The notes beneath the pieces are model-generated. The model did not search any database. It had not been told where the DNA came from and saw only the letters and a list, made by a program, of their open reading frames with translations. A DNA stretch of 32,000 nt from Caldimicrobium thiodismutans. Its GTDB lineage: Bacteria; Desulfobacterota; Thermodesulfobacteria; Thermodesulfobacteriales; Thermodesulfobacteriaceae. Shown in pieces: positions 5,019 through 24,272 of this stretch (position 1 is the first letter of the stretch; each line of letters opens with the position of its first letter). Where the stretch lies: the NCBI RefSeq assembly GCF_001548275.1, contig NZ_AP014945.1, forward strand, positions 390,001-422,000, read 5' to 3'. A program made the position numbers and the translations under genes.

Positions 5019-5298
5019 TGTATGCGTCCTTATCTTTCCTGCTTACGCAGGCAGGTGAGAATTAATATAGTAGGGATAAACCTATGTGTTTGCCCATTAT
5101 GTGTTCCTCGTAATGCCTCATTTAATTTTCTAAAGGAAATTATTTTACTTTCCCCTCCTTTTTATGATCAATTTTTTCCCGATAATAATTCCCTTTTTTC
5201 TATAAATATGCTCTCTCAAGCATTTTCTGATAACTCCTTATCTTTCTGCAAAGCTCCTTTACCTTTCCACCTATTCTTTCCTTGAAATAAGCTTTGTG
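5019..5298 (+). repeat. Intergenic mosaic element, copy 1 (long and degenerate)
   Basis: It starts TGTATGCGTCCTTATCTTT. It contains a degenerate B hairpin (GTAGGGATAAACCTATGTGTTTGCCC, 5071-5096), a CT-rich tail (CTTTACCTTTCCACCTATTCTTTCCTTGAAATAA) and a truncated right end. Confidence 0.7.
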
Positions 5299-5453
5299 AA
5301 AGAACTAAGCTCTTAAATTCAAGATGGGCGAAATAGATAGTTTTTTCGTGAAGGTTCAAGAGAGGAGCTGAGATTTTTTATATGAGGCAACGATAAATTT
5401 CGAATAGATTTTTAATGAGGCAATTCGTCCTTTGCATTATTGGGGCAGATATT

Positions 5454-5981
5454 TTATTTTTTTAGTTTTTCCAAAAGTAAAAAGATGGCAACTCCAAAGG
5501 CTATGGAGACATTTAGGGATTCCTTTTTGCCAAAAAGGGGTATCTCTAAGATTAAATCCGAGGCTGAAAGAGCTGCTTCTGAGACACCGGAGACCTCGTT
5601 TCCTATAATGAGGGCTAAAGGGAAATGCTCTTTTTTTATTTCCTGCACCGGGATGCTTTGATTTGTAATTTCTAAGGAGGCTATTGTGTAGCCCTTATTT
5701 TTAAAAGCCTCTATTGTGCTTAGCACGGAAAGGGCATACTCCCAGGGCACGGATTTAGTTGTGCCAAGGGCAGTCTTTTCTATTCCACCGTGAGGAGGAG
5801 TCGGAGTAATTCCGCAGAGAATAAGCTTTTCAATATGGGCACACTCTGCCGTGCGAAAGATGGAGCCTACATTATAGGCGCTTCTTAAATTATCAAGAAT
5901 TGCTACTACTGGAAAAGGTTGCGCTCTCCTGTTTTTACTCCAGCGAGCCAGAATTTCATCTGATTCTAATTTCTTTAGCAT
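5454..5981 (-). CDS. SpoU/TrmH-family RNA 2'-O-methyltransferase
   Basis: 175 aa with SPOUT motifs (LDNLRSAYNVGSIFRTAE; ALIIGNEVSGVS; IPLFGKKESLNVSIAFGVAIF). Confidence 0.9.
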   Translation of the reverse strand: MLKKLESDEILARWSKNRRAQPFPVVAILDNLRSAYNVGSIFRTAECAHIEKLILCGITPTPPHGGIEKTALGTTKSVPWEYALSVLSTIEAFKNKGYTIASLEITNQSIPVQEIKKEHFPLALIIGNEVSGVSEAALSASDLILEIPLFGKKESLNVSIAFGVAIFLLLEKLKK

Positions 5982-6439
5982 GCACCATAGGGAATTGAGG
6001 AGTGATGGGCAATAATTTTTATTAAACCCCCTTCAAATTTTTTATAGACAAAGGTAAACTCAACATCCCTTGCTTTCTCGGAATTTTTCAAATAAAAGAG
6101 ATATTTTCCCTGAGATAGAGCTATGTCCTGAAAATATAGCTCTCCTGCTATTTCAAATTCAATCTCCCTAAAATTTTGCAGAGCAAACCCAATGTCTTCA
6201 GGATATTTTCCACCTATAAAATAGGAAAGAGCTGATTCAAAATTTAATCTAAAGGGCACTTCTCTGGCTAAGGTAGGTTTAAAAAGCACTATTCCATAAT
6301 CGTATGCATAAAGCCTTTTTAAAAAATTTTCTGCAAGTTCCCTGTAATTCTGCCCCATCTGATAGGCCTTACTTATCTCAAGAATCCCTTTTTTCCATTC
6401 TTCTTGAATCTTGCGAATCTCTTCAGGGGTAATACTCAT
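5975..6439 (-). CDS. NTF2/SnoaL-like fold protein (function unknown)
   Basis: A 154-aa ORF with GGAGG upstream. Size and sequence pattern resemble DUF4440/SnoaL-like proteins. This assignment is tentative. Confidence 0.6.
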   Translation of the reverse strand: MSITPEEIRKIQEEWKKGILEISKAYQMGQNYRELAENFLKRLYAYDYGIVLFKPTLAREVPFRLNFESALSYFIGGKYPEDIGFALQNFREIEFEIAGELYFQDIALSQGKYLFYLKNSEKARDVEFTFVYKKFEGGLIKIIAHHSSIPYGAC

Positions 6440-6476
6440 AGTAGCCTCCTCTCTTTAAGGTTTTATATGAAAAATT

Positions 6477-7733
6477 TTAAACCAGGCTTACCGGTAATAA
6501 GGGGATTTTAAGAGCCCTTCCTTTGACAAGGGGTTTTTCCTTGGTTACAGGTAGGCTCGTTCCATGTATAAGAGTTGTTCTTCCATATTTCAGGTTAATC
6601 TCATCAACAGTTTTATAAAGGCCTTTTAAGTCCTTTGTGCCTTTGTTTTTCTCAAAAAGACCCAGTTGAAGTCTTTGCTTGGAGGTAAGATCCTTTAAAA
6701 TAACCCCCACTTGCCTGAAAAGAAGCCCTTCTCTATAGAGTTCCTCAAAGGCCTTTCGCAAAAGGGGAAGCAAGTCTCTGGGATAGGCAGAAGGGTAGGG
6801 AAGTTTTAATTCCATAGCATGCACCTTAAATTCCTGGTCCTTTAAAAAGTAAAGGAGCCTCTGAGCTGAAAGCCCATAAGCCCTGGCTTTAAAACAGGCC
6901 ATTTCAAGGTTAAAGGCGCTTTGGGCTAAGAGAAATTCCTGATTATCCGTTGGTGTAAAGGAAAGGGCCTTGCTAATGCTTTTGTAATTTGCCTTTATAT
7001 CAGGTATAACGGGATAGACCTGAACCCCTCTTAATTCAAGCCAAATCTCGTAATGGGGTTTAGTAAAGTGTTTTTTTATAAAATTCTCGCTGGCTTTTGC
7101 AAAGTCAAGGGCTGAATAAATTCCAAGTTTTTCACAGAGGGCTGAGGTCTGAGGACCAATTCCCCAGATCTCTGAAATTGGTAAATTTTTGAGATAATGA
7201 TGAATTTCTCTTCCAGCTATCAAAGTTAGACCATCGGGCTTGCGAAATCCTGAGGCAACCTTAGCCAGCACTTTGGTAAGGCTTATGCCTACCGAAACAG
7301 TTATCCCCAGCTCTCTCTTAATGGTTTCCTTTATTTTTAAGCCCAGCTCTTCATAGCTTGACCGATAATATCTCCTCAGACCCTTTAAATCAGCAAAAGC
7401 CTCATCAATGGAATATTCCTCAACCATAGGGCTAAATCTCTTTAAAATTTCAAAAAGCCTTAAGGAAAAGAGGGAATACCTTTCGTAATCCGATTCAAGG
7501 ATTACACATTCAGGGAATTTACGAGAGACCTCAAGGATAGTCATTCCCCGTTTGATTCCTAAGGCCTTGCCTTCATAACTTACCGCAGTAACAATCCCTC
7601 TTTCTTTACCTACTACAACGGGCTTCCCTTTAAGTTCAGGATTGACTGCCTGTTCTACCGAGGCGAAAAAGGCATTGGCATCAAGGTGAAGAATAGCTTG
7701 AGGAAACCCATAAATATTCAGGGGATAATCCAT
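6477..7733 (-). CDS. Y-family DNA polymerase (UmuC/DinB type)
   Basis: 418 aa with the motifs LDANAFFASVEQ and YSIDEAFADLKG (closest to the UmuC YSIDEAFCDL motif), plus the little-finger region. It sits directly downstream of a UmuD-like gene. Confidence 0.92.
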   Translation of the reverse strand: MDYPLNIYGFPQAILHLDANAFFASVEQAVNPELKGKPVVVGKERGIVTAVSYEGKALGIKRGMTILEVSRKFPECVILESDYERYSLFSLRLFEILKRFSPMVEEYSIDEAFADLKGLRRYYRSSYEELGLKIKETIKRELGITVSVGISLTKVLAKVASGFRKPDGLTLIAGREIHHYLKNLPISEIWGIGPQTSALCEKLGIYSALDFAKASENFIKKHFTKPHYEIWLELRGVQVYPVIPDIKANYKSISKALSFTPTDNQEFLLAQSAFNLEMACFKARAYGLSAQRLLYFLKDQEFKVHAMELKLPYPSAYPRDLLPLLRKAFEELYREGLLFRQVGVILKDLTSKQRLQLGLFEKNKGTKDLKGLYKTVDEINLKYGRTTLIHGTSLPVTKEKPLVKGRALKIPLLPVSLV

Positions 7734-7742
7734 ACCCTTATT

Positions 7743-8126
7743 TTAACGATACTTTCTAATAACTGCAATAACTACCCCGAAGACCTCTCCATCTCTTTCC
7801 TGAGAGAGAATAAGGGGTTGATATTGAGGATGGGCAGGTTTAAGAAGAATTTTTCCCTTTTCGCGAAAAAAATACTTCATGGTCCATTCATCTTCAATCC
7901 TTACAACAACAATGTCATTATTCTTAGGGGTTAGAGATCTATCCACTAAAACATAATCTCCGGGGAGGATACCAGCTTCTAACATAGATTCTCCAACTAC
8001 CCGAATAAGAAAAGTGGAGGAGGGATTGGAAATGAGCCACTCCTCCATACTAATGCTCTCTAAAAGGGTATCTTCAGATTGAGAGGGAAAGCCTGCTGAG
8101 ATGTATCCGAGAAAGAGTATCTCCAA
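7743..8126 (-). CDS. UmuD-like S24 peptidase (LexA C-terminal domain only)
   Basis: Alignable by eye to E. coli UmuD: an Ala-Gly cleavage motif (ISA|GFPS), the catalytic Ser in GESM, the Lys in TMKYF, and a C-terminal FGVVIAVIRK. The start is uncertain: TTG at 8126, only 6 nt after the ahcY stop, with no SD. Confidence 0.85.
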   Translation of the reverse strand: MEILFLGYISAGFPSQSEDTLLESISMEEWLISNPSSTFLIRVVGESMLEAGILPGDYVLVDRSLTPKNNDIVVVRIEDEWTMKYFFREKGKILLKPAHPQYQPLILSQERDGEVFGVVIAVIRKYR

Positions 8127-8132
8127 GGTAGA

Positions 8133-9401
<1,269 letters not shown>

Positions 9402-10565
9402 TTATCTGTCAAAACCAGCAAGTTCCTTAATTTTTTCCACCATATCTACCTTTTCCCAATTAAATTCAGGCTCAGGTCTTCCAAAGTGTCCGTAGCAGGC
9501 AGTTTTTCTAAAAATGGGGCGCCTTAAGTTAAGATAATCAATCATGTGTTTGGGCCTGAAGCAAAAGAGTTTGTTTATGATCTCAAGGATTTTATCAACG
9601 GGTATAGCCTCTGTCCCATAGGTATTAACATTTATAGCTAAGGGTTCCGGAACTCCAATGGCATAAGCAACCTGAACTTCAAGCTCCCGGGCTACTCCTG
9701 CTGAAACAAGATTCTTGGCTACATAACGGGCATAATAAGAAGGAGTTCTATCAACCTTAGTGGCATCCTTTCCAGAAAAGGCTCCTCCTCCATGGTGGCC
9801 CCTTCCTCCGTAGGTATCAACAATTATTTTTCTTCCTGTCATTCCACAGTCTGCTAAGGGACCTCCGATAACAAATCTTCCAGTTCCATTGATTATAATT
9901 TTGGTATCTGATCTTAAGTGTTCAGAGGCAATGACCTTTTTGATCACCTCTTCATAAATAGCCTCTCTGAGTTCTTTTAAGGTAACGGTTGGATCATGTT
10001 GAGCAGCAATGACAACCGTGTGAACATCAACAGGGCGTCTATCCTCATATCTTACAGTTACTTGCGTTTTCCCATCTGGCCTGAGGAAGGGGAGTATTCC
10101 CTTTTTTCTAACCTCTGCAAGCCTCATGGCCAGTTTATGGGCATACCATATAGGCATGGGCATAAGATCAGGGGTCTCATCACAGGCATAACCAAACATC
10201 AACCCCTGGTCTCCAGCTCCAATCTCTCCATCCCTCTCAATTCCCATGGCAATATCAGGGCTCTGGCGGTCAATACTAATTAAAACAGCACAGGTTTGAT
10301 AGTCAAAACCAAGATCTGAGTGGTTATAACCTATTTCTTTGACTACACCTCTGGCAATAGTCGGATAATCCACACGGGCCTCTGTGGTAATCTCACCAGC
10401 AATGAGAATCATCCCTGTGTTCACCAGCGTCTCACATGCCACTCGGGCATAAGGATCCTTTTCCAAAATGGCATCAAGCACAGCATCAGAGATCTGATCT
10501 GCAACCTTATCCGGATGCCCCTCGGTTACAGATTCTGAGGTAAAAAGAAAGTTTTTTACAAGCAT
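9402..10565 (-). CDS. metK: S-adenosylmethionine synthetase
   Basis: 387 aa with the motifs [33 protein letters not shown] and [16 protein letters not shown]. Confidence 0.98.
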
Positions 10566-10601: not shown

Positions 10602-10629
10602 AATTTACTATAAATTTTTTTATTATCAA
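10602..10629 (-). promoter_or_regulatory. Putative promoter of the metK-ahcY-umuD-like-polY-NTF2-spoU gene string
   Basis: Read on the minus strand: TTGATA (10629-10624), a 16-nt spacer, then TAAATT (10607-10602). The -35 box lies 6 nt from the left terminus of repeat copy 2. Confidence 0.45.
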
Positions 10630-10635
10630 CTCAAC

Positions 10636-10848
10636 TGTATGCGTCCATATCTTTTAGGACTCTATAGGATTTTTTCTACCACTTAGTTGTTGGAAAAGGA
10701 ACCTGTATTTTGTAAAGTCAAACCTCTGTATTTGCCCTCTTTTGGCAAATCTATGTGTTTGCCTGTTAATTAAAATATCCTTCTAAATCTAATTTAGCAC
10801 ATCTCTTAAACATCCAATGTTTAAGAGAGCTTTTTTAGTGCATTATGC
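10636..10848 (+). repeat. Intergenic mosaic element, copy 2 (right boundary uncertain)
   Basis: It starts TGTATGCGTCCATATCTTTTAGGAC. The A module resembles copy 6 (..TATAGGATTTTTTCTACCACT). The B region is at 10730-10763 (ATTTGCC..GGCAAATCTATGTGTTTGCC). Clear homology ends near 10763. A possible degenerate right end is CATTATGCCAAAAAA at 10841-10855. Confidence 0.65.
10802..10836 (+). terminator. Rho-independent-type terminator on the plus strand, with no plus-strand ORF upstream
   Basis: An 11-12 bp perfect stem (CTCTTAAACAT at 10803-10813 pairing with ATGTTTAAGAG at 10817-10827), loop CCA, then AGC and TTTTTT (10831-10836). The minus-strand reading has no downstream T-tract. Confidence 0.6.
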
Positions 10849-10954
10849 CAAAAAATCTAAGATTTGTTCAATCAGGAGACCTGGTTTAAATTTTAAAAAG
10901 AATTAAGTAAGAGTCACAAATTGAAAGATATGCAATTTATAATGAGAGGGATTT

Positions 10955-10973
10955 CCCCCTCATTAAGAGGGGG
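10955..10973 (-). terminator. GC-rich stem-loop downstream of rubrerythrin (candidate terminator)
   Basis: CCCCCTC-ATTAA-GAGGGGG lies about 30 nt after the rbr stop. An alternative pairing with GAGAGGG (10944-10950) is possible. No clear U-tract follows on the minus strand. Confidence 0.35.
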
Positions 10974-11002
10974 CAGTATGTTTATCAAAGAAACTTGAAA
11001 AG

Positions 11003-11503
11003 TTAAAATTTTTTAAATTTTTCACCCGGGACCCCACAAATTGGACATCTTTCTGGTGCTTTACCTACCGCTGTATGTCCACAGGTGGGGCAGATGTAGA
11101 TATCTCCGATATCAAGGTCTCTTCCCATTTTAACGGATTCCTTGGCCTCAGCAAAAAGAGCAGCATGGATCTTTTCAGCCTCAATAGCATAATGAAAGGC
11201 TCTTAAGGCTTGCTTTTCTCCTTGTAATTCAGCTACAGCTTTATAAGCAGGATACATCTCCTCAACCTCAAAGTTTTCCCCTTTAATAGCGGTCTCAAGA
11301 TTATCCAGCGTTCCATTTCCATTTAGGGCTTTCAAGTGGTTTTCAGCATGCACCCTTTCGGCATAAGCAACTGCTCTAAAAAGTCTTGCAATCTGAGGAA
11401 AGCCCTCTGCCTCAGCCTTATCCGCAAAAATCAAGTACTTTACACAGGCCTGAGATTCACCAGCTAAAGCTCCCTTTAAACACTCCTTTGTCATCTCCTT
11501 CAT
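11003..11503 (-). CDS. rbr: Rubrerythrin
   Basis: 166 aa. It has a ferritin-like di-iron domain (E..E..H motifs: YAERVHAENH, AIEAEKIHAALF) and a C-terminal rubredoxin-like CPTCG...CPICG. GGAGG lies 7 nt upstream of the ATG. Confidence 0.95.
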   Translation of the reverse strand: MKEMTKECLKGALAGESQACVKYLIFADKAEAEGFPQIARLFRAVAYAERVHAENHLKALNGNGTLDNLETAIKGENFEVEEMYPAYKAVAELQGEKQALRAFHYAIEAEKIHAALFAEAKESVKMGRDLDIGDIYICPTCGHTAVGKAPERCPICGVPGEKFKKF

Positions 11504-11532: not shown

Positions 11533-11560
11533 ATTATAAAAAGAAAATTATTTTTGTCAA
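11533..11560 (-). promoter_or_regulatory. Consensus sigma70-type promoter of rubrerythrin
   Basis: Read on the minus strand: perfect TTGACA (11560-11555), a 16-nt spacer, then perfect TATAAT (11538-11533). The -35 box lies 5 nt from the left terminus of repeat copy 3. Confidence 0.75.
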
Positions 11561-11565
11561 TAGTT

Positions 11566-11816
11566 TGTATGCAGCCATATCTTTTGAGACTTAAAATTTA
11601 CCTCTTTTGGTAGACAAATTGGATTTTTTTAGTAGGGGCAAAACTATGTGTTTGCCCCTTTGTGGCGTTTGCCTGTTATATGTTCCTTTAAGTTATTGGG
11701 CAGACAGACAAAGATTTGGCAGACACGCAAGGGCCTCCCTCTACTCTCCCCTTTCACCTCTCCCCTTTCACCTCTTATCACCCTTTATTTTTCTTGAAAT
11801 AATCAGAACCTATGCG
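11566..11816 (+). repeat. Intergenic mosaic element, copy 3
   Basis: It starts TGTATGCAGCCATATCTTTTGAGAC. The A module is ~88% identical to copy 4 over ~66 nt. The B hairpin is GGGGCAAA..TTTGCCCC (11635-11658), with a second GTTTGCC at 11667-11673. It also has a GGCAGACACGCAAGG module, a CT-rich tail with a perfect 14-nt tandem duplication (11746-11773), and the right end CTTGAAATAATCAGAACCTATGCG. Confidence 0.85.
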
Positions 11817-11904
11817 AAAAGACCACTTTTTCCAAAATAATCTGATAAATCTGACAAAGGAATTCTATACTTTTCAACTAAAACTTGTAAATTTTTTGCT
11901 TCTC

Positions 11905-12654
11905 TTATAATCCTTCTTCTCTATCAGGGACATCAGTGTAAAAGGTTATCTCAAGACTTTTGCAAAAGTTCTTTGCCTCACGATCAAGTATAGGAGAAAT
12001 AATTATCTTTCTTGTGACTTTTTTCCCTTCTTTTTTCTCAAAAAACTTTACCTTTCTCTCAAAAAGCAAAACATCTCCAGGACTAACGGAAGATTTAATC
12101 TCAGCTACAATAAGCTCACCATCTCTAATAATAAGGTCAATTTCAACCCTTTTTCCAGGAAAACCTTCAAAGACCTCACCTTCTAAATCAGTTGTTTCAT
12201 AATGTTCTACCTTAACCCCAAAGGTTTCCTCAAGAAGCCCTTTTACTGCATTGCGAAAGGTTTTTTCTGATTTAATTCCCCATCTTGCCCCGAGGGCACC
12301 AATCTGCACATCCTGTCTCTTTCTTAAGGCAAGGATTTCTTCCATCAGGATTTTATTGCCTTGAGAGAGTTCTTCAAGCTTCTTTGAATGCTCTTTCAGT
12401 ATCTGAGAATGTTCCTCAAGCCTCTTTGAATGTTCTTCCCATCTTTTTTCACTCTCAATTCTTAGGTTCTTAATCTCCTCTAAAAGGGCTTTAATCTCTT
12501 CTTCAGTAGTTTTTTTGTCTGCAAAATTTTCTTTGAAAAGACTTGCTACATAATCCTTAAGAAGGGGATCTTCCTTTAAAAGCTCGGGGAGATCCCGAAT
12601 TAACATTTCCTTTAAAGCTACTTTGGATATGATACTTTTTTTAGCCCTTTGCAT
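11905..12654 (-). CDS. DUF3782-type protein: N-terminal coiled coil + C-terminal PD-(D/E)XK nuclease-like domain
   Basis: 249 aa. It has heptad-like repeats (EEHSKRLEEHSQILKEHSKKLEEL) and a C-terminal D...E-x-K signature (VEIDLIIRDGELIVAEIKSS). The family assignment is from memory of similar multi-copy proteins in thermophiles. Confidence 0.75.
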   Translation of the reverse strand: MQRAKKSIISKVALKEMLIRDLPELLKEDPLLKDYVASLFKENFADKKTTEEEIKALLEEIKNLRIESEKRWEEHSKRLEEHSQILKEHSKKLEELSQGNKILMEEILALRKRQDVQIGALGARWGIKSEKTFRNAVKGLLEETFGVKVEHYETTDLEGEVFEGFPGKRVEIDLIIRDGELIVAEIKSSVSPGDVLLFERKVKFFEKKEGKKVTRKIIISPILDREAKNFCKSLEITFYTDVPDREEGL

Positions 12655-12679
12655 AAAAAATTCCCCCCATTAATTCCTA

Positions 12680-12707
12680 AACTTAAAAGAAAAAGGAAAA
12701 AAAACAA
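12680..12707 (-). promoter_or_regulatory. Weak putative promoter of the DUF3782 gene
   Basis: Read on the minus strand: TTGTTT (12707-12702), a 16-nt spacer, then TAAGTT (12685-12680). The geometry relative to repeat copy 4 matches the other copies (6 nt offset), but both hexamers are poor. Confidence 0.3.
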
Positions 12708-12713
12708 GAGGGT

Positions 12714-12982
12714 TGTATAAGTCCATATCTTTCAAGATTTAAAATTTACCTCTTTTGGTAGATAAATTGGATTTTTTTTATCTTAAACTATAAAACCTTC
12801 CCTGTATAAATATTCTAAAACCTTTGGTAGGGATGAATGATTGTTTATCTCCCTGTCTATCCCAGGCAGATACATTCGACTCCAGTCGAATAATTTTAAT
12901 GGGGCAGACTCGTAAGGACTTCCCATACTCTCCCATCTCACCTTTTACCACCATTTTTCTTGTAAGGATATGAACTTATGCA
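12714..12982 (+). repeat. Intergenic mosaic element, copy 4 (best-preserved terminal inverted repeats)
   Basis: The left end TGTATAAGTCCATATCTTT matches the reverse complement of the right end, TGCATAAGTTCATATCCTT, at 16 of 19 positions. It has a degenerate B module (12828-12853), a private 8-bp hairpin ATTCGACT/AGTCGAAT (12874-12891), and a GGCAGACTCGTAAGG module shared only with copy 3. Confidence 0.88.
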
Positions 12983-12996
12983 GTTAGTCAAAACTT

Positions 12997-13716
12997 TTAA
13001 GAACTCAAAAATTGGGAGAGAAGTTCTGTTAGTTTGATAATTAGCTGTTCAGTAATTATCTTTCCCTTTTCTGGGGTGGCTTTAAGCGGATTTCCCCAGA
13101 TGCCAGAGGCCCAAAAGAGCTTTTTTTCAGGGACAACCTGATATTTAGGAAAGGCTGGATAATCCTCAAAGGCCTTATCAAGGGGCTTTACTAATTCATT
13201 TTTCAGATAAAGTATAAGAGAGGTTTCCCACTCTCCTGCATGGGAATCATTCTCAGGGATCCCCAGTTCTTTTAAAGTATCCTTAAGTAAATTGATAATA
13301 TCTGCTACAAAAAAGCGTGTTTGCGGATATTTTTCTATGAATTGTTCTGCGGTATCAATAATAAAGGCATTGTGCGTCCCTCCAGCATGTCCAGAAAGAA
13401 TGATGAATTTTCTCAATCCCTGACGATAGAAGCTTTCTAAAAGATCAAAGAGCAAGCTTTTAAGGGTTTCACCGCGAAGAGAAAGAGTGCCTGGTATATC
13501 CCGGGTGCTTCTGCAGAGGCCAAAATAGAGAGGAGGAGCAAGAAAGACCTCTATTCTCTTTATTACTCTTTTGCAGATTTCGTAAATAGTGAAAAGGTCT
13601 GTTCCTAAGGGGAGATGGGGCCCGTGGGCCTCAATTGACCCCACTGGAAGAATAACCCCCTTGATCCTTTTAGAGAGCTCTTCAAACTCATAAGAGGTTA
13701 ATTCTTCAATTTGCAT
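12997..13716 (-). CDS. Creatininase-family amidohydrolase
   Basis: 239 aa with the motifs GSIEAHGPHLPLGTD, LSGHAGG and a downstream SHAGEWETS, typical of the creatinine amidohydrolase family. Confidence 0.88.
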   Translation of the reverse strand: MQIEELTSYEFEELSKRIKGVILPVGSIEAHGPHLPLGTDLFTIYEICKRVIKRIEVFLAPPLYFGLCRSTRDIPGTLSLRGETLKSLLFDLLESFYRQGLRKFIILSGHAGGTHNAFIIDTAEQFIEKYPQTRFFVADIINLLKDTLKELGIPENDSHAGEWETSLILYLKNELVKPLDKAFEDYPAFPKYQVVPEKKLFWASGIWGNPLKATPEKGKIITEQLIIKLTELLSQFLSS

Positions 13717-13779: not shown

Positions 13780-16700
13780 ATGAGATTCAAAAGGCTCTCA
13801 GGGGTTAATCCCTCTTTTTTAGGGTATTATTTAGGGGCAGAGAAAGTGCCTGATCTTGATGGATATACTTTGATTGCCCTTTTTCCCAATCAAGAAAGTG
13901 CCAAGGACTTTTTATCTGTTTACAAGGCCTTTTCGCAGAATAGGGCATCTTTTTATCCTGCCTTAGGGATCCCTCCCTTTGCAGAAGTCTTTACCCTCAA
14001 TGAAGAAGAAAGGGAACGCCTTAAGGTCCTGTGGGAGCTTCCTACTTTAAAGGTAATTGCCCTTGAGATCAAAAGTTTTCTCAGAAGAACCATTTCCAGA
14101 GAACAGCTTAAGCTAAATTATCTGTATCTTTTGCCAGGTGAAAAGATTGATCGTGAGACCTTGATTGAAGACATAGTAAGACTTGGTTATGAACGGGTAG
14201 GGGTGGTTAGAAGTAAAGGAGAGTTTACCTCTAAGGGAGCAGTTCTTGATCTCTTTTCTCCTCAGAATGATTATCCCACAAGAATTGAATTTTTTGGAGA
14301 TGAGGTTATAAGCCTTAAAGCCTTTGATCCTGAAACTCAGAGGAGGCTTGGATATCTTGAGGAATTAAGTATCCTTCCCGCAAGGGAACTTTTTTTTCCA
14401 AAGGATTCCCAGCCTCTTTATGAAAAAATCTTAAGCTATAAGGATAAACTTTCTGAAAAAAGAATATCCGAACTTTTGCAAATGGTAGAAAATAAAATAA
14501 TCCTTGAAAATCCTGACTTTCTTCTTCCCCTCCTTTGGGAAGATTTGAAACTTTTGCCTGAAAATCTCGGAGAAAAGATCTGTTTTGTCCTCTTTGAAAG
14601 AGAAAAACTCTTAAAAGAGATGGAAGTTTTTTGGGATAGAATCTATAATTCTGCCAAGAAGGCTAAGGAGAAAGAAAGGCTATTAGTGGCTGAGGAAAAA
14701 CTTTATGCAACTATTGAAGAAGTAACGGCCTTTTTTGATAGATATCCAACTCTTGAGGCCTTTGAGCTTCCTCTGGCTGACAGAGATACCCTTTTATTTC
14801 CTTTGCAGAAATATGAAATTTCCCGGGAAGCTTCCCGGCTTGAACAGGCCTTTAATTTTCTTAAAGAACACCTTTCTGCAGGAAGAGAAATTTTTTTATT
14901 TGTGCAAGATGAAAAAAATTCCAGGGCTATTCTTGATGGTTTAAGATACAGGGGTATTGAGGATTTTGATCATTTGAGCATTCTTACAGGAGACCTCCAA
15001 GATGGTTTCTTTTTTCCAGATAAAGGACTTGTCCTTACCTCAGATTTTGAACTCTTTGGAAAGAGAATTTTTAAAAAAGAGGAAAAACAAGCCTTGAAAC
15101 GGGTCAGGGGCTACTTTAGAAAGTTTGAGGACCTCAAACCCGGTGATTATGTGGTGCATAAGCTTCATGGTATAGGAAGGTTTCAGGGATTGATCTCACT
15201 TAAAGTGGATGGTTTTGAGGGGGAGTTTCTTCAGATTGAATATGAAGGGGGAGACAAACTTTATGTGCCTGTGACCAAACTTGAAGAACTCTATCCCTAT
15301 GTGGGAGTGGAAGAAAAGATTCCCCAATTAGATAAACTGGGGAAAAAGACCTTTCTTAAAAAGAGAAAGGAAGTAGAAAAGAAATTAACTGAGGTGGTTG
15401 AAGAAATCCTGAGGCTCTATGCTGAAAGAAGAACCCTTAAGGGATTTTCTATTCCTGTGGATAATCTCTCCTATGCAGAATTTTCCCAGACCTTCCCCTA
15501 TGAAGAGACCCCGGATCAGCTCTCAGCTATTGAAGAAGTCCTGGAGGATCTTCAAAGTTCAAAGCCAATGGAAAGGCTTGTGGTAGGAGATGTAGGCTTT
15601 GGAAAAACGGAGGTAGCTCTGAGGGCCATTTTTGTTACTGCAAGGGCAGGAAAACAAGTAGCTTGCCTTACTCCCACAACTCTTCTTGCTGAACAACATT
15701 ACCGCAATTTTAAAGAAAGACTGGATTCCTTTGGTATAAAAGTGGGGATTCTCTCACGGTTAAGAAGTGAAGGAGAACAAAGGGCTGTTCTCAAAGCCTT
15801 GCAAGAAGGTGAGATTCAGGTAGTAGTTGGGACCCATAGACTTCTTTCTAAGGATGTCCAGTTCAAAGACCTTGGACTTCTTGTAATTGATGAAGAGCAC
15901 CGCTTTGGAGTAAGGCAAAAGGAGCGTTTAAAACAACTTAAAAAGGCTGTAAAGGTTCTATCTCTTTCAGCTACTCCTATTCCCAGGAGCCTTCAATTAA
16001 GCCTTCTTGGAATTTTTGATCTTTCTTTGATTGAAACACCTCCTTTGGGAAGAAAAAGTATTAAGACCTTTCTTACCCCCTTTGATCCTGAAGTCATAAA
16101 AGCAGGCCTTGAGGAGGAGCTTTCAAGAGGAGGTCAGGTTTATTTCGTTCATCCACGCATTCAGGGTCTTACAAGCCTTGCAAAATTTCTTGAGAAACTT
16201 ATGCCCTCAGCCCATATTGAGATTGTGCACGGTCAGATGGATTCATCTCAACTTGAAAGGGCTATCTTTAATTTTTTAGAGAGGAAGGTAGATATCCTTG
16301 TCTGCACCCCTATCATTGGGAGTGGAATTGATATTCCTTCAGCTAATACTATTTTTATCAATCGGGCAGACATGTTTGGACTTGCGGATATTTATCAACT
16401 TAGAGGAAGGGTAGGGCGGGGACAGGAAACAGCCTATTGTTATCTTCTTGTGCCAGATCTAAAAGGTTTAACAGAAAATGCTCAGAAGAGATTAAAGGCC
16501 CTTATGAAGTTTGTTGAACTTGGCTCAGGTTTTAAACTCTCTTTAAGTGATCTAAAGATAAGAGGTGCAGGGGAGCTTCTCGGAATAAATCAATCAGGAC
16601 ACATCAATAAAGTGGGCTATGAACTCTATCTGGAACTCCTTGAGAACACCATTCGTAGTTTAAAGGGGGAGGAGATTGAGGATTGGGAACCTGAGGTTAA

Positions 16701-17115
16701 TATCAAGGTGCCAGCCTTTATTCCTTCTAAATATGTGCCAGAGACTGAAGAAAGATTGAGTCTCTATAGAGAACTTGTGCTCATTAAGTCCTTTTCAGCA
16801 CTTGAGGATTTTATGGATTTTTTAAAGGATAAGTATGGAGCCCTACCAAAGGAGGCTGAAAATCTTATTAAGATTTATCAATTAAAACTTTATATGAAGA
16901 GCCTAAAAATTTTATCAATTGAGGAAAAGGGAAGAAATCTTCTTTTTTATATTAAAGATCTCTATCTTCTTCCGAAATTTAGAAAGGCTTCTCAGAATGA
17001 AAGTTATCAGCTTTTAAAAGTTAAGGATGAAAAGGAAAGGGCAATTTTAATCTATAAAGTGGACGGACCTTTTCTCGATTCTGCCTTAAAGATTTGTCAG
17101 ACTATTAAGCAGTAG
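13780..17115 (+). CDS. mfd: Transcription-repair coupling factor
   Basis: It has a UvrB-homology N-terminal region, a CarD-like segment (GDYVVHKLHGIGRFQGL), superfamily-2 helicase motifs (GDVGFGKTEVA, DEEHRFG, SATPIPR, QLRGRVGRG) and a TRCF C-terminal domain. I prefer the ATG at 13780, preceded by GAGGA at 13768-13772, over the listed 13711 start. Confidence 0.95.
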   Translation: MRFKRLSGVNPSFLGYYLGAEKVPDLDGYTLIALFPNQESAKDFLSVYKAFSQNRASFYPALGIPPFAEVFTLNEEERERLKVLWELPTLKVIALEIKSFLRRTISREQLKLNYLYLLPGEKIDRETLIEDIVRLGYERVGVVRSKGEFTSKGAVLDLFSPQNDYPTRIEFFGDEVISLKAFDPETQRRLGYLEELSILPARELFFPKDSQPLYEKILSYKDKLSEKRISELLQMVENKIILENPDFLLPLLWEDLKLLPENLGEKICFVLFEREKLLKEMEVFWDRIYNSAKKAKEKERLLVAEEKLYATIEEVTAFFDRYPTLEAFELPLADRDTLLFPLQKYEISREASRLEQAFNFLKEHLSAGREIFLFVQDEKNSRAILDGLRYRGIEDFDHLSILTGDLQDGFFFPDKGLVLTSDFELFGKRIFKKEEKQALKRVRGYFRKFEDLKPGDYVVHKLHGIGRFQGLISLKVDGFEGEFLQIEYEGGDKLYVPVTKLEELYPYVGVEEKIPQLDKLGKKTFLKKRKEVEKKLTEVVEEILRLYAERRTLKGFSIPVDNLSYAEFSQTFPYEETPDQLSAIEEVLEDLQSSKPMERLVVGDVGFGKTEVALRAIFVTARAGKQVACLTPTTLLAEQHYRNFKERLDSFGIKVGILSRLRSEGEQRAVLKALQEGEIQVVVGTHRLLSKDVQFKDLGLLVIDEEHRFGVRQKERLKQLKKAVKVLSLSATPIPRSLQLSLLGIFDLSLIETPPLGRKSIKTFLTPFDPEVIKAGLEEELSRGGQVYFVHPRIQGLTSLAKFLEKLMPSAHIEIVHGQMDSSQLERAIFNFLERKVDILVCTPIIGSGIDIPSANTIFINRADMFGLADIYQLRGRVGRGQETAYCYLLVPDLKGLTENAQKRLKALMKFVELGSGFKLSLSDLKIRGAGELLGINQSGHINKVGYELYLELLENTIRSLKGEEIEDWEPEVNIKVPAFIPSKYVPETEERLSLYRELVLIKSFSALEDFMDFLKDKYGALPKEAENLIKIYQLKLYMKSLKILSIEEKGRNLLFYIKDLYLLPKFRKASQNESYQLLKVKDEKERAILIYKVDGPFLDSALKICQTIKQ

Positions 17116-20085: not shown

Positions 20086-20093
20086 AGTTTAAA

Positions 20094-20121
20094 ATTATAA
20101 TCTTAAACTTTTACTTTCCAA
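20094..20121 (-). promoter_or_regulatory. Putative uvrD promoter (implies a leaderless or near-leaderless mRNA)
   Basis: Read on the minus strand: TTGGAA (20121-20116), a 16-nt spacer, then perfect TATAAT (20099-20094). Only 8 nt separate the -10 from the ATG at 20085, and there is no SD. The -35 box lies 7 nt from the left terminus of repeat copy 5. Confidence 0.5.
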
Positions 20122-20128: not shown

Positions 20129-20244
20129 TGTATGTGTCCATATCTTTATTTATGATGAAATGTATATGGTTTCACATTATTTCTTCCTTTCACCTCTTAC
20201 CTCTTCCAACCTTTCTTTTTCTTGTAAGGATCTGAACTTATGCA
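20129..20244 (+). repeat. Intergenic mosaic element, copy 5 (minimal version, lacks the B hairpin)
   Basis: TGTATGTGTCCATATCTTT ... CTTTCACCTCTTACCTCTTCC ... TTTTTCTTGTAAGGATCTGAACTTATGCA. The ends match as inverted repeats at 14 of 20 positions. Confidence 0.85.
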
Positions 20245-20371: not shown

Positions 20372-20902
20372 ATGAAGTGTCCAGGGCAGGATTGGAGATA
20401 CTGGAGAGAGGATGCCATTTTTGAAGTTAAATGTCCCTATTGTGGAGCCTCAATTGAATTCTTTAAGGATGATACTGTTAGAAAGTGTTCACAATGTAAA
20501 AAGGCTGTTCCCAATCCACGGATGGATTTTGGGTGTGCCGCTTATTGTAAATATGCTGAGGTATGTTTAGGAGAGCTTCCTCCAGAGCTTATTCGTGAAA
20601 AGGCTAATCTTTTGAAGACGCGCCTTTTGACCCTTCTTCAGGAACTTTTGGACAAAGAGAGTTTTTCCCGCATAGAAAAAGGGGCTGAACTTCTGGAAGA
20701 AGAACTTAGGTCCAAAGAGCAATCTCCAGGCACAAAGCTTTTACTCTTTTATTTTTATTTTTTAACACCTGATCAGAGGGAAGAGCTTTATAAAAAAGCT
20801 AATCTTCCCGAGACCCTCTGGGAGGAGATACGCCACATGTTAAAAGGTTTACCAGCTGATTTAACTCAAGATGCCTTGATAGAAACATTAATAAAGGACT
20901 AA
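20372..20902 (+). CDS. Cys-rich zinc-ribbon protein with a helical C-terminal domain (function unknown)
   Basis: 176 aa with N-terminal CPxxxx..CPYCG..CSQCK..C..C..C cysteine clusters. A strong SD lies 8 nt upstream. Confidence 0.75.
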   Translation: MKCPGQDWRYWREDAIFEVKCPYCGASIEFFKDDTVRKCSQCKKAVPNPRMDFGCAAYCKYAEVCLGELPPELIREKANLLKTRLLTLLQELLDKESFSRIEKGAELLEEELRSKEQSPGTKLLLFYFYFLTPDQREELYKKANLPETLWEEIRHMLKGLPADLTQDALIETLIKD

Positions 20903-20921
20903 ATCAGAGGGAGGTATAAAT

Positions 20922-21659
20922 ATGGCCAAAATTAGAAGAAAAATTATTGAAATTGATGAAACCCTTTGTAATGGCTGTGGTAAATGTGTGACTGCTTGTG
21001 CTGAAGGAGCTCTTGCTATAATTGATGGCAAGGCAAGGCTTGTAAGTGAGATTTACTGTGATGGCCTGGGAGCATGTCTTGGAGAATGCCCAACAGGGGC
21101 TTTAAAAATTGTGGAAAGAGAGGCTGAGGAATTTGATGAGCAGGCTGTGGAAGAATACTTAAAAAGAATGAAGGCTGAGCTTTCTTCACCATTTACTTCT
21201 CAACTGGCTTGTGGTTGTCCTTCCCACCAGTTAAGAGAGCTTGAACCAGAAAGCAGGTCCTCTATTGAAGCTAATATACCCTCTGCTCTTTCTCACTGGC
21301 CAGTCCAAATTAGACTTATTCCACCCAGTGCTCCTTTTTTGAGAGAGGCTAAACTCCTTATTTGTGCAGACTGCGTCTCAGTTGCCTATCCTAAGCTTCA
21401 TCTTGAGCTTCTTCCTGAGAGAAAAATTATGATAGGGTGTCCCAAATTTGATCCCGCCGAACTATATGTAGAGAAGTTTGCCGAGATCTTTGAAAAGGTA
21501 CCCCTTCAGAGTGTTGAAGTAGCTATTATGGAAGTTCCATGTTGTAAAGGGTTAGTTTACATTCTCAATGAAGCAAGAAAGCTTGCTAAAAAGGAAATTC
21601 CCTTTAAGATTTATACCATCGGGGTTAAAGGAGAAATCCTTAGAGAGGAGGTCTTTTGA
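20922..21659 (+). CDS. 4Fe-4S dicluster (ferredoxin-type) domain protein
   Basis: 245 aa with two CxxCxxC...CP motifs (CNGCGKCVTACAEGA; CDGLGACLGECPTGA) and a Cys-containing C-terminal domain (CGCP, CADC, CPKF, PCCKG). Confidence 0.85.
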   Translation: MAKIRRKIIEIDETLCNGCGKCVTACAEGALAIIDGKARLVSEIYCDGLGACLGECPTGALKIVEREAEEFDEQAVEEYLKRMKAELSSPFTSQLACGCPSHQLRELEPESRSSIEANIPSALSHWPVQIRLIPPSAPFLREAKLLICADCVSVAYPKLHLELLPERKIMIGCPKFDPAELYVEKFAEIFEKVPLQSVEVAIMEVPCCKGLVYILNEARKLAKKEIPFKIYTIGVKGEILREEVF

Positions 21660-22456
21660 GCTATATGGAGTGGGAAAGGGAGGCTGAAGAGTATCTTAAA
21701 AAAGTTCCCTTTTTCGTAAGGGGAAGAGTGAAAAGAGAGATTGAGAAATACCTTGCTGAGAGAGGCTTGAAAAGGGTTACCTTAGATGGGGTGCTTTCTG
21801 CTAAAAGTGCCCTTATAGATAAGATGTCTCAGGCAGAAAGAGCCTTTGAGGTAAGTGGGTGTTTTGGTCTTAATTCCTGCCCTAATGCCCTTACTACTTC
21901 TGAGGAGTTACTCAAAAAGCTTGAGCAGGTTCTTGAGGAGGAGAAAATATCCGATTTATTGAGAGAGAAGGTGAAGGGCCCTCTTAAAGCACATCACAAG
22001 TTTAAGGTTCTTCTTTCGGAATGTCCCAATGCCTGCTCCCAGATTTACATCGCGGACTTTGCTCTTCATGGTGTGGTAAAAGTAGATGTGGATCCCAAGG
22101 CCTGTTCCTTTTGTGGGTCCTGTGTAGAGGTCTGTGAGGAGTCTGCTATTAACCTTACTGATTTCGGGCCTTTAGTGAATGAAGAAAGGTGTGTGGGCTG
22201 TGGGCATTGTATAAAGATCTGCCCTGAATCCGCTCTAACTGAGGCTTTCAGAGGATATAAAATCTATCTGGGAGGTAAGCTTGGCAGACATCCAAGACTT
22301 GCAACCTTTCTAACTTATGCAAAAGAGGATGAAGTAATAGCTCTTTTTAAAAAAGTTGTGCAATTTTATAAAGAGAATAATATAAAAGGGGAACGCTTAG
22401 GAACTATCCTTGAGAGAGTTGGCTGGGACAGGGCTAAAGAATTGCTTCTGAGGTAG
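21656..22456 (+). CDS. Fe-S protein: PCP-reductase-like N-terminal domain + 2x[4Fe-4S] ferredoxin domain
   Basis: 266 aa with EEYLKKVPFFVRGRVKREIEKY (PCP_red-like) and the motifs CSFCGSCVEVCE and CVGCGHCIKICP. The start is ambiguous: TTG at 21656 overlaps the upstream stop, and an ATG follows at 21665. Confidence 0.8.
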   Translation: MSYMEWEREAEEYLKKVPFFVRGRVKREIEKYLAERGLKRVTLDGVLSAKSALIDKMSQAERAFEVSGCFGLNSCPNALTTSEELLKKLEQVLEEEKISDLLREKVKGPLKAHHKFKVLLSECPNACSQIYIADFALHGVVKVDVDPKACSFCGSCVEVCEESAINLTDFGPLVNEERCVGCGHCIKICPESALTEAFRGYKIYLGGKLGRHPRLATFLTYAKEDEVIALFKKVVQFYKENNIKGERLGTILERVGWDRAKELLLR

Positions 22457-24065
22457 TATTTTCAGAGGAGGGATTGGTTAAAGATTTTTTTGAGGAATTA
22501 TCTTTTTGAGCCTTATTCAGATAATCCTGAAAATATTCCAGCACCTCACCATTTAACACTCTTTTGGCTCCTGCATATCTCTTTTGAAAGTATGGATCAT
22601 CCAGAACATCAATGGAGACCCTTTTGCGAGAAGATGAGATGTGAATAAAACGATTGTCCCCAATGTAGATACCCACATGGGAGATTCTTTTGCCATTGGT
22701 CTTGAAGAAAACAAGATCTCCTGGAATTAGCTCCGATCTTTCTACAGGAACTCCAACTTGATATTGCTGTAAGGAACTCCGAGGAAGATTTATCCCTAAC
22801 TCTTCGTAAACAAGTTTTACAAAGGCAGAACAGTCCAAATATCCATTGCCTGTCCCTCCTAATTTATAACGGGCATCGGCAAGATTGGCGGAGAGTTCAA
22901 TAAACTTTTGTTGTAAGGCCTTTTCCCCTTCCTTGGAAAGCATGGCTGGGGTAAGAATTTTATTTTTCTTGTCAAGTATATTTTTTTCAAATTTCTGGGA
23001 TAGGCTCTCTTCTTTTGATTCTAAGGACTCCTTTGGACTCTGCAAGACAAAGGGTTTTTCAGCAATCTCTAATTTGGGTGGGATGCGCAGTTTTTGACCA
23101 ACAACTATAATATTATTTTCAAGGTGATTGGCCTCCATCAGTTTCTCAAGGGGAACCTGGTAAAGCAAAGCAATGCTATAAAGAGTTTCCCCGGGTTTAA
23201 CAATGTGATATTTGTCTTCACCGGCAGCAGGAAGCTCTCTTTCTTCTGGTCTTACAGGAGGAAGGATCTTAACCAGAAGTTTTTGACCAGGTTTAACCCT
23301 TTTGGCGCTAAGGTGATTAAGTCTCTTTAATTCCTCAAGGGTGATACCATTCTTTTTAGCGATTTTTTGAAGGGTATCCCCCTTTTTGACGATATAATAA
23401 ATTTTTTGGGGTTCTTGAGGTAAAGCTTGCTTGGTCTTTTCTGGTTTTAAATTTTGGACCTCATAGGAGGGTTTACTTTTTGGAATTTTCAAGGTCATAC
23501 CAGGTTTTAATTGCTGTGGAGAAACCTGGTTAATCCGCAGGATTTCATCAAGAGGAACAGCATATTTCTTGGATATTCTATAAAGATTCTCACCCTTAGC
23601 TATCTGATGGGTAATATAAGATTCCTCCTTAGGAGGTTCTGAAGGGATAGCAGTTTTTTCATGGACTAAAGGATGCCCTTCTTCTACTGGAGAAGGAGAT
23701 AGATTTTTCCCAGGAATAATAAGTTTTTGTTTCAAAGACAATTTTTCAGAGGTGAGATGGTTTGCTTTTTTGATTTCTTCAGGGCTAATACCATAGAGTT
23801 TTGAGATTTTATAAAGGGTCTCTCCTTTTTTGACTATATGAATTTTACCTTTTTCTTTACGCTCTAAGGAATGAGATGAATTGATTGCCTTAGAAGGTTT
23901 TTTTTTCTTGGATTTTGAGGAGACCTTATGAGTAGGTACTTTTGTCTTTTGGGCTTGAGATGAATTCTTATGCTTTTTGGTTGAAGCATATAAAGAAGAT
24001 GAGCTACAAAGAAAAAGAAGGAAAAAAATAATCCAAAATATATTTTTAGAAGACAAAGATTTCAT
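22434..24065 (-). CDS. Secreted or lipoprotein peptidoglycan hydrolase: 4 LysM domains + C-terminal NlpC/P60 endopeptidase
   Basis: 543 aa. It has a signal peptide with a possible lipobox (LFLCSSS), four LysM repeats (HIVKKGETLYKISKLYGIS.. and similar), and the NlpC/P60 catalytic Cys and His context (GYLDCSAFV ... ISHVGIYIG). Confidence 0.92.
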   Translation of the reverse strand: MKSLSSKNIFWIIFFLLFLCSSSSLYASTKKHKNSSQAQKTKVPTHKVSSKSKKKKPSKAINSSHSLERKEKGKIHIVKKGETLYKISKLYGISPEEIKKANHLTSEKLSLKQKLIIPGKNLSPSPVEEGHPLVHEKTAIPSEPPKEESYITHQIAKGENLYRISKKYAVPLDEILRINQVSPQQLKPGMTLKIPKSKPSYEVQNLKPEKTKQALPQEPQKIYYIVKKGDTLQKIAKKNGITLEELKRLNHLSAKRVKPGQKLLVKILPPVRPEERELPAAGEDKYHIVKPGETLYSIALLYQVPLEKLMEANHLENNIIVVGQKLRIPPKLEIAEKPFVLQSPKESLESKEESLSQKFEKNILDKKNKILTPAMLSKEGEKALQQKFIELSANLADARYKLGGTGNGYLDCSAFVKLVYEELGINLPRSSLQQYQVGVPVERSELIPGDLVFFKTNGKRISHVGIYIGDNRFIHISSSRKRVSIDVLDDPYFQKRYAGAKRVLNGEVLEYFQDYLNKAQKDNSSKKSLTNPSSENTTSEAIL

Positions 24066-24094
24066 TTTTGCTTAAAAACCGACTTTTTTATTCT

Positions 24095-24122
24095 TTTATA
24101 CCTTAAAAAAATAAAAAGTCAA
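24095..24122 (-). promoter_or_regulatory. Putative promoter of the LysM/NlpC-P60 gene
   Basis: Read on the minus strand: TTGACT (24122-24117), a 16-nt spacer, then TATAAA (24100-24095). The -35 box lies 6 nt from the left terminus of repeat copy 6. Confidence 0.55.
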
Positions 24123-24128
24123 GGCTGT

Positions 24129-24272
24129 TGTGTAGGCCCATATCTTTTGAGACTTATGAGGATTTTTACTACTACTTTTATTGCTTGCCTTTGCAGATTT
24201 ATGTAGGGGCAAACCTATGTGTTTGCCCTCTTACAACCCTTCCTTTTTCTTGTAAGGATCTGAACTTATGCA
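24129..24272 (+). repeat. Intergenic mosaic element, copy 6 (compact A-B-C version)
   Basis: TGTGTAGGCCCATATCTTTTGAGAC ... perfect B hairpin GGGCAAAC-CTATGT-GTTTGCCC (24207-24228) ... CTTACAA-N13-TTGTAAG stem ... GGATCTGAACTTATGCA. Confidence 0.88.

Follow-up and report, generated by a model that had tools for sequence, protein, structure and literature searches.

A probable non-autonomous mobile repeat family placed upstream of promoters in Caldimicrobium thiodismutans

A 32,000-nt stretch of Caldimicrobium thiodismutans DNA (contig NZ_AP014945.1, positions 390,001 to 422,000; hereafter the window, numbered from its first letter) carries six related intergenic sequences, which a first, sequence-only reading described as a dispersed mosaic repeat bounded by inverted repeats, similar to a MITE (miniature inverted-repeat transposable element). 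What are these sequences, are they mobile, and what determines where they lie? Our analysis confirms the description as a dispersed mosaic repeat family, with amended boundaries, and indicates that it is probably a lineage-specific, non-autonomous mobile repeat family of this species, which we call family A. Of the readings considered, the MITE-like one has the best support, yet it is incomplete: family A combines MITE-type ends, the make-up of a bacterial interspersed mosaic element (BIME) and a cargo similar to repetitive extragenic palindromes (REPs). Sequence comparison shows that family A is an undescribed, non-coding family bounded by inverted repeats, and suggests that conserved promoters have gained or lost its members between species. 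Small repeats between genes are a common finding; what is unusual here is that family A fills most of the larger spacers examined, always facing the next gene and, in nearly every copy, ending 5-7 bp before its -35 hexamer. The sequence-only reading mentioned neither this fixed promoter-proximal position nor a 1.42-kb gene-carrying block bounded by family members.

Copies of family A in the window and at other loci

The same-species DNA compared amounts to ~128 kb and consists of the window and of ~96 kb further from loci L085, L088, L090, L091 and L092 of the metagenome-assembled genome (MAG) GCA_017880035.1. One protein encoded in the window is 100% identical to THC_0403 of C. thiodismutans and another to the Mfd of this species. 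The MAG belongs to the same species as the window; its locus L089 matches window 22651-1932 in one 20.8-kb alignment at 99.16% identity, with copies 1-5 in place. The MAG loci were entered via paralogues of the DUF3782 gene, so that the copy density of this sample is biased. Two JGI metagenome contigs (L086 and L087) represent a sister Caldimicrobium species in which gene order is kept at 76-86% nucleotide identity. In the Thermodesulfobacterium loci, MetK is 92-93% identical and synteny differs. Throughout, the proximal end, or box, is the terminus on the promoter side, called the left terminus in the sequence-only reading, and the distal end is the opposite terminus.

Related sequence is present at all six sites originally reported. 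The terminal box AAAGATATGGACGCATACA occurs five times on the minus strand of the window at up to 3 mismatches, and 100 dinucleotide shuffles gave no occurrence; the sixth box (24129-24147) has 4 mismatches. With each copy as query, nhmmer recovered the other copies, all on the minus strand, and no further match in the window. Direct-repeat detection reproduced the modules listed before. The distal end TGCATAAGTTCAGATCCTTACAAGAAAAA is found only in copies 3-6, and the hairpin GGGCAAAC-N6-GTTTGCCC in copies 1, 2 (degenerate), 3 and 6. In gene direction an element reads distal end TGCATAAGTTCAGATCCTTACAAGAAAAA, purine-rich stretch, variable middle and proximal end ...TAAGTCTCAAAAGATATGGACGCATACA.

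All six copies lie on the minus strand, as do the genes downstream of them. Copy 6 (24129-24272, 144 nt), before a LysM/NlpC-P60 gene, is the cleanest full element and is composed of the distal end TGCATAAGTTCAGATCC..., the purine-rich stretch, a REP-like hairpin (GTAGGGGCAAACCTATGTGTTTGCCC on the plus strand, 24203-24228) and the proximal end ...TAAGTCTCAAAAGATATGGGCCTACACA. Copy 5 (20129-20244, 116 nt) has both ends without the hairpin and faces uvrD in the divergent uvrD/zinc-ribbon spacer. Copy 4 (12714-12982, 269 nt), before a DUF3782/PD-(D/E)XK gene, shows the closest match between its inverted termini (17/24); 14 nt separate its start from the stop codon of the creatininase gene, and 6 nt lie between its box and the -35 hexamer of the DUF3782 gene. 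Copy 3 (11566-11816, 251 nt), before the rubrerythrin gene, has a degenerate distal end CGCATAGGTTC and the box, with an interior made of a 13-nt purine-rich tandem repeat, a GCAGAC-type module and a REP-like hairpin (11632-11657, plus strand). The two remaining copies retain the proximal part only, and their earlier boundaries have to be revised. Copy 2, before metK and formerly drawn to ~10848, is family-related at 10636-10768, where it holds the box and two degenerate hairpins; by nhmmer the rest is not related and there is no distal end. Copy 1, before a DUF6657 gene, belongs to family A over 90 nt (5019-5108), which contain the box, a degenerate REP-like hairpin (5070-5095, plus strand) and the hairpin CCTGC-GTAA-GCAGG; the element formerly drawn at 5019-5298 is a chimera whose remainder, the larger part, belongs to an unrelated repeat, family B (5109-5427).

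A family A member is found in 6 of the ~9 promoter-bearing spacers of the window, and 5 of the 6 copies are within the 3' region of a co-directional upstream gene. Members measure 75-370 nt and have no conserved open reading frame (ORF), which bears out their non-coding character; likewise, scanning of the window ORFs revealed no transposase domain, in line with the first reading. No tRNA overlaps the six copies.

The family extends beyond the window, a point on which the first reading had made its proposal depend. There are ~20 members in the same-species DNA, ~14 of which are further members at unrelated loci in L085, L088, L090, L091 and L092. They lie upstream of two tRNA operons and serS, of the genes for a DAHP synthase and for HAD-family, DsbC-like and SLH-domain proteins, and of several DUF3782 paralogues. 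A subfamily with 89-90% identity over 205-225 nt is formed by three copies from unrelated loci. Extrapolation would give ~100-300 copies per genome, a figure biased by the way in which the loci were reached.

The core of family A measures 75-115 bp and is bounded by imperfect terminal inverted repeats of ~24 nt, with the distal consensus 5'-TGCATAAGTTCAGATCCTTACAAG and the proximal consensus CTCAAAAGATATGGACGCATACA-3'. The imperfect inverted repeats and the TG...CA ends noticed before are both supported. When the consensus of ten distal ends was compared with that of thirteen reverse-complemented proximal ends, from the termini inward and without gaps, 14 of 24 positions matched; only 0.11% of the 24-mers in 257 kb (both strands, true copies included) match the distal consensus as well, and the similarity of the ends is therefore above background, as the first reading had asked of it. 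Within single copies the identity over 24 nt is 17 in copy 4, 14 in copy 5, 13 in copy 6 and 10 in copy 3, and intermediates between the two end consensuses exist, e.g. TGTATAAGTCCATATC. The ends do not fold, and no hairpin through the whole element is formed by them. The alternative origin raised by the first reading, derivatives of IS200/IS605-type elements, does not agree with these termini: subterminal hairpins are lacking, inverted repeats are present, and no fixed tetra- or pentanucleotide abuts an end. In fact, the 5-7 nt between the element end and the TTG motif are different in each copy.

Other end-recognition systems were considered and rejected. A site-specific recombinase with a GCATA core at both junctions is contradicted by sister-species sites without GCATA. 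By inspection, TGCATAAGTTC and GCATACA do not fit the R''/R' cores (RYYYAAC ... GTTRRRY) of an integron attC site or gene cassette, and the cassette reading, which implies promoterless cassettes, fails because each downstream gene has its own promoter. For an IS91-type element with an abutting CTTG/GTTC target, CTTG is indeed frequent, but its C is the one preceding the -35 hexamer.

Position relative to promoters and comparison with the sister species

Placement was counted over 16 box matches outside the window's own duplicates, one of which lies within a gene, has 4 mismatches and is a chance match. All 15 intergenic boxes face the next gene, and in 14 of them the box ends 5-7 nt before a TTGNNN -35 hexamer that is separated by a 16-nt spacer throughout from a TANNNT -10 hexamer. 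In a scan, the best-scoring -35 was found at 5-7 nt in 13 boxes; for copy 2 it was found at 1 nt, and this copy was counted as the fourteenth because another promoter, TTGATA-16-TAAATT, begins 6 nt past its box and is shared by the sister species. The exception is the degenerate copy at L085 20625, with the -35 at offset 0. Next to a partial box at L085 9621 another member follows in tandem, and the hexamers scored there lie inside that member. The boxes that follow the rule include those of two tRNA operons, serS, the DAHP-synthase gene, the DsbC-like gene and the SLH-domain gene.

In the window the six promoters, all on the minus strand, show this arrangement with different hexamers. The promoter of the DUF6657 gene (4986-5013) is of sigma-70 type, TTGACA-16-TATCTT, 5 nt past the copy 1 box, and it is also conserved in the sister species, where the box is missing. 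The metK promoter noted above lies at 10602-10629, 6 nt past the copy 2 box. The rubrerythrin promoter (11533-11560, TTGACA-16-TATAAT), a 12/12 match, begins 5 nt past the copy 3 box. That of the DUF3782/PD-(D/E)XK gene (12680-12707, TTGTTT-16-TAAGTT), 6 nt past the copy 4 box, is conserved among the paralogues, and that of uvrD (20094-20121, TTGGAA-16-TATAAT), 7 nt past the copy 5 box, in the sister species. Finally, the promoter of the LysM/NlpC-P60 gene (24095-24122, TTGACT-16-TATAAA) lies 6 nt past the copy 6 box, with hexamers also present in the sister species.

The uniform orientation of the copies, which according to the first reading IS200/IS605-type derivatives would also have explained, finds a different explanation here. 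Copies face whichever gene lies downstream, on the plus or on the minus strand: those on the plus strand precede genes of that strand, and on the same contig a copy on the minus strand precedes a gene of the minus strand. The uniform minus-strand orientation in the window is thus due to boxes pointing at downstream genes and not to strand or replication bias. Nor is the geometry forced by the room in the spacers, because the family B copies that share them have both orientations and distances to the -35 of 8 to ~41 nt. At 14 promoters the proximal end occupies the place of an upstream promoter element (~-60 to -40).

Other promoter-associated sites were not recognised in the box. A sigma-54 promoter (TGGCAC-N5-TTGC) was rejected by inspection, since the TGGAC of the box is never followed by TTGC at the required spacing and sigma-70-type hexamers are present instead. 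An IHF site (WATCAANNNNTTR) and a CRP/FNR-type palindrome were also rejected by inspection of the copies. On the opposite strand, at window 5007-5036 and 11554-11583 (plus strand), the native TTGACAA gives as reverse complement TTGTCA, 18 nt from a TATCTT that lies within the box; the pair resembles a promoter directed into the element, which may be coincidental.

The comparison with the sister species shows what is conserved at these sites. The alignment of the promoter regions to L086/L087 ends at window 5015, 11564 and 20126, where the ends of the boxes of copies 1, 3 and 5 are 2-4 nt away, and homology is lost beyond. At these orthologous promoters, three of the five compared, nhmmer found no family A member in the sister species, and the -35 and -10 hexamers are conserved there; the promoters therefore pre-date the family A copies. 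The first reading had proposed to look for the same sequence at orthologous loci as a sign of an ancestral regulatory region: it is absent at the sites of copies 1, 3 and 5, while a box is shared at metK, for one copy. Upstream of metK in Thermodesulfobacterium no copy was found.

The sister sites are not empty. They hold other repeats, classical GTAG-CCGCAAGC-TTTA-GCTTGCG REP units, single and in alternating orientation, so that no clean empty orthologous site is available. REP/BIME-like arrays were observed at L086 1403-1787, 6677-6897, 8945-9202, 16362-16600 and 21400-21500; their palindrome, GGTAGCCGCAAGC-TTTA-GCTTGCG with the inverse TACGCAGGCTAAAGGTCTTGCGGCTACCAAAAAA, is of a type different from the palindromes of C. 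thiodismutans.

Interior, duplicated block and origin of the family

The interior of family A differs from copy to copy; it is made of REP-like palindromes headed by GTAG, of a microsatellite rich in purines and of family B copies nested within it. Four palindrome types occur in the larger members, each preceded by GTAG: GGGCAAAC, CACAGAC, GGGTTTAA/GGGTTCAA and GGGCAGAC. In C. thiodismutans they are mostly single, and both orientations are found only in L092. The purine-rich stretch by the distal end of copy 3 is a short tandem repeat, two units of GGTGAAAGGGGAGA (window 11740-11790, minus strand), and it differs by a 26-nt indel from its counterpart at L085 9676-9705, in a second copy of the 1.42-kb block; because of this length difference it behaves like a microsatellite.

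The block itself measures 1,417 nt (11566-12982, minus strand) and contains copy 4, the DUF3782/PD-(D/E)XK gene (11905-12654) and copy 3. Window 12981-11566 is ~97% identical to L085 9648-11088, where the block lies between an aminotransferase gene and a tRNA operon; its box is there 5 nt before TTGAAA-16-TAAAAT, driving the tRNA genes. Homology starts at GCATAAGTTC and ends at GCATACA, the outer element termini, and the flanks are unrelated. As far as the alignment tells, the segment that was copied is the one delimited by the outer family termini, which does not in itself prove transposition.

How could such a family have arisen? In the scheme that we favour, a transposase encoded at another place would move the copies in trans; to judge from the ends it would be a DDE enzyme, to judge from the interior hairpins a REP-associated tyrosine transposase (RAYT). 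The interior is filled differently in each copy by palindromes, the microsatellite and a nested second MITE, which gives the mosaic, BIME-like look. The fixed geometry would reflect integration specific for position and orientation relative to the promoter, by a selector reading the -35 region, and/or the survival of this geometry only, in which case the proximal end (~-60 to -41) would act together with the promoter as an upstream promoter element, UP-like or factor-binding. A stronger form, in which a machinery selecting sigma-70 promoters integrates the element 5-7 bp upstream of the -35 in fixed orientation, via the -35 region or bound RNA polymerase, and the proximal end is a portable upstream promoter element, is unlikely on present evidence.

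Several observations weigh against a mobile family. The absence of convincing target-site duplications, already noticed in the first reading, was confirmed at 11 junction pairs, where no consistent duplication was found and only two 3-nt matches (AAC, TTT) occur; decay of the duplications in old copies is possible. No transposase with matching ends was found in the 128 kb of same-species DNA. No other copy was returned by a scan of a genome collection with the distal-end pattern, nor by scans of a metagenome collection with the distal-end and the hairpin plus box patterns; pattern scans of viral contigs gave three chance matches in one and zero in another. The duplicated block could be explained by gene conversion between two loci with a pre-existing element-gene-element layout. 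At two sites of the sister species, before metK and before a DUF3782-like gene, a box-like TCTAAAATCC(T/A)(A/G)TGGACT... keeps the distance of 5-6 nt to the -35, and the distal-like CTGCATA(A/G)GTTT lies directly past two upstream stop codons. The metK box (copy 2) is common to both species, and this copy is for that reason ancestral. From these alignments the system is judged to be at least genus-old, with the metK copy ancestral and the other copies differing between species, and part of it could be old and maintained by function instead of mobility. Moreover, a site for a transcription factor or an UP element would also show a fixed spacing to the -35.

These points lead to the explanation that the family is not mobile at all: the box would be a conserved upstream promoter element or operator, the distal end a second site, and the shared flanks regulatory DNA duplicated by "promoter propagation". 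Position (~-60 to -41) and orientation fixed at 14 promoters speak for it, and so do the box being the best-conserved module, present also in the decayed copies 1 and 2, the equal spacing at which the metK box is kept in the sister species, and the tRNA operons and housekeeping genes downstream, as expected for control of the growth-rate type. We nevertheless consider it quite unlikely, as the downstream genes are functionally unrelated, the orthologous sister promoters do without the box, and the box is not a clear palindrome; the 75-340 nt of shared non-box sequence, the hairpin stems decayed without compensatory change in copies 1 and 2, the nested insertions and the ~90% subfamilies are rather the signature of a selfish repeat. 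That the family is mobile but is in essence a REP/BIME system, in which mosaics around GTAG palindromes are spread by a RAYT (HUH) transposase on single-stranded DNA and TG...CA represents BIME-type flanking motifs, is possible, if doubtful. The GTAG before all four palindrome types and the GTAG units of the sister species at the same intergenic sites fit with it, as does the published definition of REPs as short stem-loops that carry a GTAG tag, are often organised into BIMEs and are linked to RAYTs; some RAYT-like genes are flanked instead by families with terminal inverted repeats (PMC3733652, PMC2817692). However, the smallest members (L090 9870-9944, 75 nt; copy 5) consist of both ends only, so that the palindromes look like cargo or secondary insertions; the overall excess of GTAG at hairpins is marginal (17/461 versus 1.3-3% for control tetranucleotides); and the gene tables of the same-species loci and the window ORFs scanned show neither a transposase or Y1/HUH domain nor a RAYT. 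For the interior hairpin modules, which look like GTAG-tagged REPs, an involvement of HUH/RAYT enzymes may be envisaged.

Two further explanations appear much less probable. The 1.42-kb block might be the autonomous element, with the DUF3782/PD-(D/E)XK (PDDEXK_10) protein as mobility nuclease and the short copies as deletion derivatives; we regard this as very improbable, even if the block is bounded by family termini and present at two loci at 97% identity, at least 8 paralogues of the gene (75-98% identity) exist in a genome of 1.8 Mb, found in the window and in L085, L088, L090, L091 and L092, most of them adjoining family A copies, and at the corresponding position of the sister species a homologue of 26% identity lies between genes ~80% identical at the DNA level. 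The internal ends of the block are complete, which makes it an element-gene-element arrangement and not a gene inside one element; other paralogues have different flanking copies or none (L091, and the tandem array of three in L092); the sharp boundaries are equally explained by gene conversion between paralogous loci; and the best matches of the protein are the type III CRISPR accessory profile PADLOC C3a181 (6.8e-13) and Csx1-type nuclease, and no transposase. We treat the gene as a passenger; the literature search gave no paper characterising DUF3782. It is still harder to believe that the copies are small-RNA genes or cis-acting RNA elements, such as 3'-UTR stabilisers or terminators of the upstream gene. 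The location of 5 of the 6 copies behind a co-directional gene would suit this idea, and the hairpin module of copy 6 folds better than shuffles (z = -2.5), but copy 5 is unstructured (z about 0), the hairpin arms of copies 1 and 2 decay uncompensated, no T-run follows the hairpin on the gene strand, and Rfam gave no match on the elements at the gathering threshold or even at E <= 1.

A comparison with known systems helps to define what is particular to family A. It resembles the BIMEs and REPs of Enterobacteria and Pseudomonas in density, in its extragenic sites and in GTAG palindromes mixed with other motifs (PMC2817692, PMC3733652). The species-specific palindrome type is another likeness, with a different REP at the same sites of the sister species. 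Family A differs in being bounded by non-palindromic inverted ends of ~24 nt that persist without a palindrome, and in lying in one orientation to the next gene, abutting its promoter. BIMEs are mostly found at 3' ends or within operons. The Correia elements (NEMIS/CREE) of Neisseria are 100-160-bp non-coding elements, abundant in intergenic DNA near genes, that influence promoters; their terminal inverted repeats measure 26 bp, TA is duplicated, insertion occurs in either orientation, and the elements themselves contribute promoter hexamers, which they carry or create. Family A shares with them the short non-coding structure, the inverted ends and the great abundance in the intergenic DNA of a small genome, close to genes, whereas it has no duplication, its hexamers are native to the target and its orientation is fixed. 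BOX of Streptococcus pneumoniae and the NIMEs of Neisseria are modular intergenic mosaics, BOX being organised as boxA-boxB(n)-boxC without such terminal inverted repeats; modules are present or absent in varied combinations as in family A, but the sequences and the module logic are unrelated. Neither is known to have a dedicated transposase or a promoter-distance rule.

For the placement, the closest parallels are functional and imply no homology. Tn7 at attTn7, and Ty3 and Ty1 at Pol III genes, insert in a single orientation and with a fixed, short spacing to a sequence or complex that a target selector recognises and that is left intact; the Tn7 site is unique per genome, while family A lies at many promoters, where a selector would be purely hypothetical. 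Matus-Garcia and colleagues reportedly described in 2012, as "promoter propagation in prokaryotes", homologous upstream sequences before unrelated genes of one genome (putative mobile promoters). In contrast to these, the family A repeat stops 5-7 nt before the -35, and the hexamers are locus-specific and conserved with the sister species. No paper was found that ties Thermodesulfobacterium or Caldimicrobium to such repeats.

Should the placement be due to target choice, the mode of target selection would be new for a bacterial mobile element; should it be due to selection, a selfish repeat would have been turned into a standard upstream promoter module in a deep-branching thermophile. Were a promoter-selecting machinery to exist, it would be a bacterial counterpart of targeting of the Ty3/Tn7 type, and the same module would be found at a large part of the promoters in a genome of 1.8 Mb. 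Family A also offers a ready-made promoter map for an organism without transcriptome data, and it explains local differences in gene order, for example the rubrerythrin and DUF3782 genes beside metK.

Family B and neighbouring genes

Family B is unrelated to family A. Its window copy (5109-5427, minus strand) measures ~320 nt and has the inverted ends CGAATTGCCTCATTAAAAATC ... GAAAATTAAATGAGGCATTACG, the end paired with GAAAATTAAATGAGGCATTACG being also written as AATTGCCTCATTAAAAATC. Six copies, ~90% identical and in both orientations, often lie nested in or beside family A; the others are found at L085 ~7960-8247, L088 ~3700-4048 and 16545-16880 (minus strand), L090 ~10800-11033 and L091 ~12110-12460 (minus strand). 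Spurious ORFs are called inside these repeats, a point of interest to annotators; within family B such calls are window 5007-5285 (plus strand) and a 106-aa ORF in L088.

Some of the genes downstream of the copies have unusual starts. At window 20086-20100 (minus strand) the uvrD ORF begins 8 nt past the TATAAT and has no Shine-Dalgarno sequence, so that a leaderless mRNA is possible judging from this arrangement; at the first ATG of the LysM/NlpC-P60 ORF (window 24066-24095, minus strand) there is no obvious ribosome-binding site. In L089, metK (12138-13300, the orthologue of window 9402-10565) is called as two pieces of 168 and 181 aa; in a MAG 99% identical to the window this suggests a frameshift or an assembly error of the MAG and not of the window. 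A 154-aa ORF at window 5975-6439 (minus strand) has no Pfam match, PF27546 (MICAH) being recorded for its MAG orthologue, and matches the NCBIfam "metal-independent carbonic anhydrase" at 4.3e-23, far under the curated cut-off. Directly downstream of ahcY-metK, at window 6477-8126 (minus strand), lie the genes of a 127-aa S24 peptidase (UmuD/LexA-like) and of a 418-aa Y-family polymerase, a pair that is kept in the sister species.

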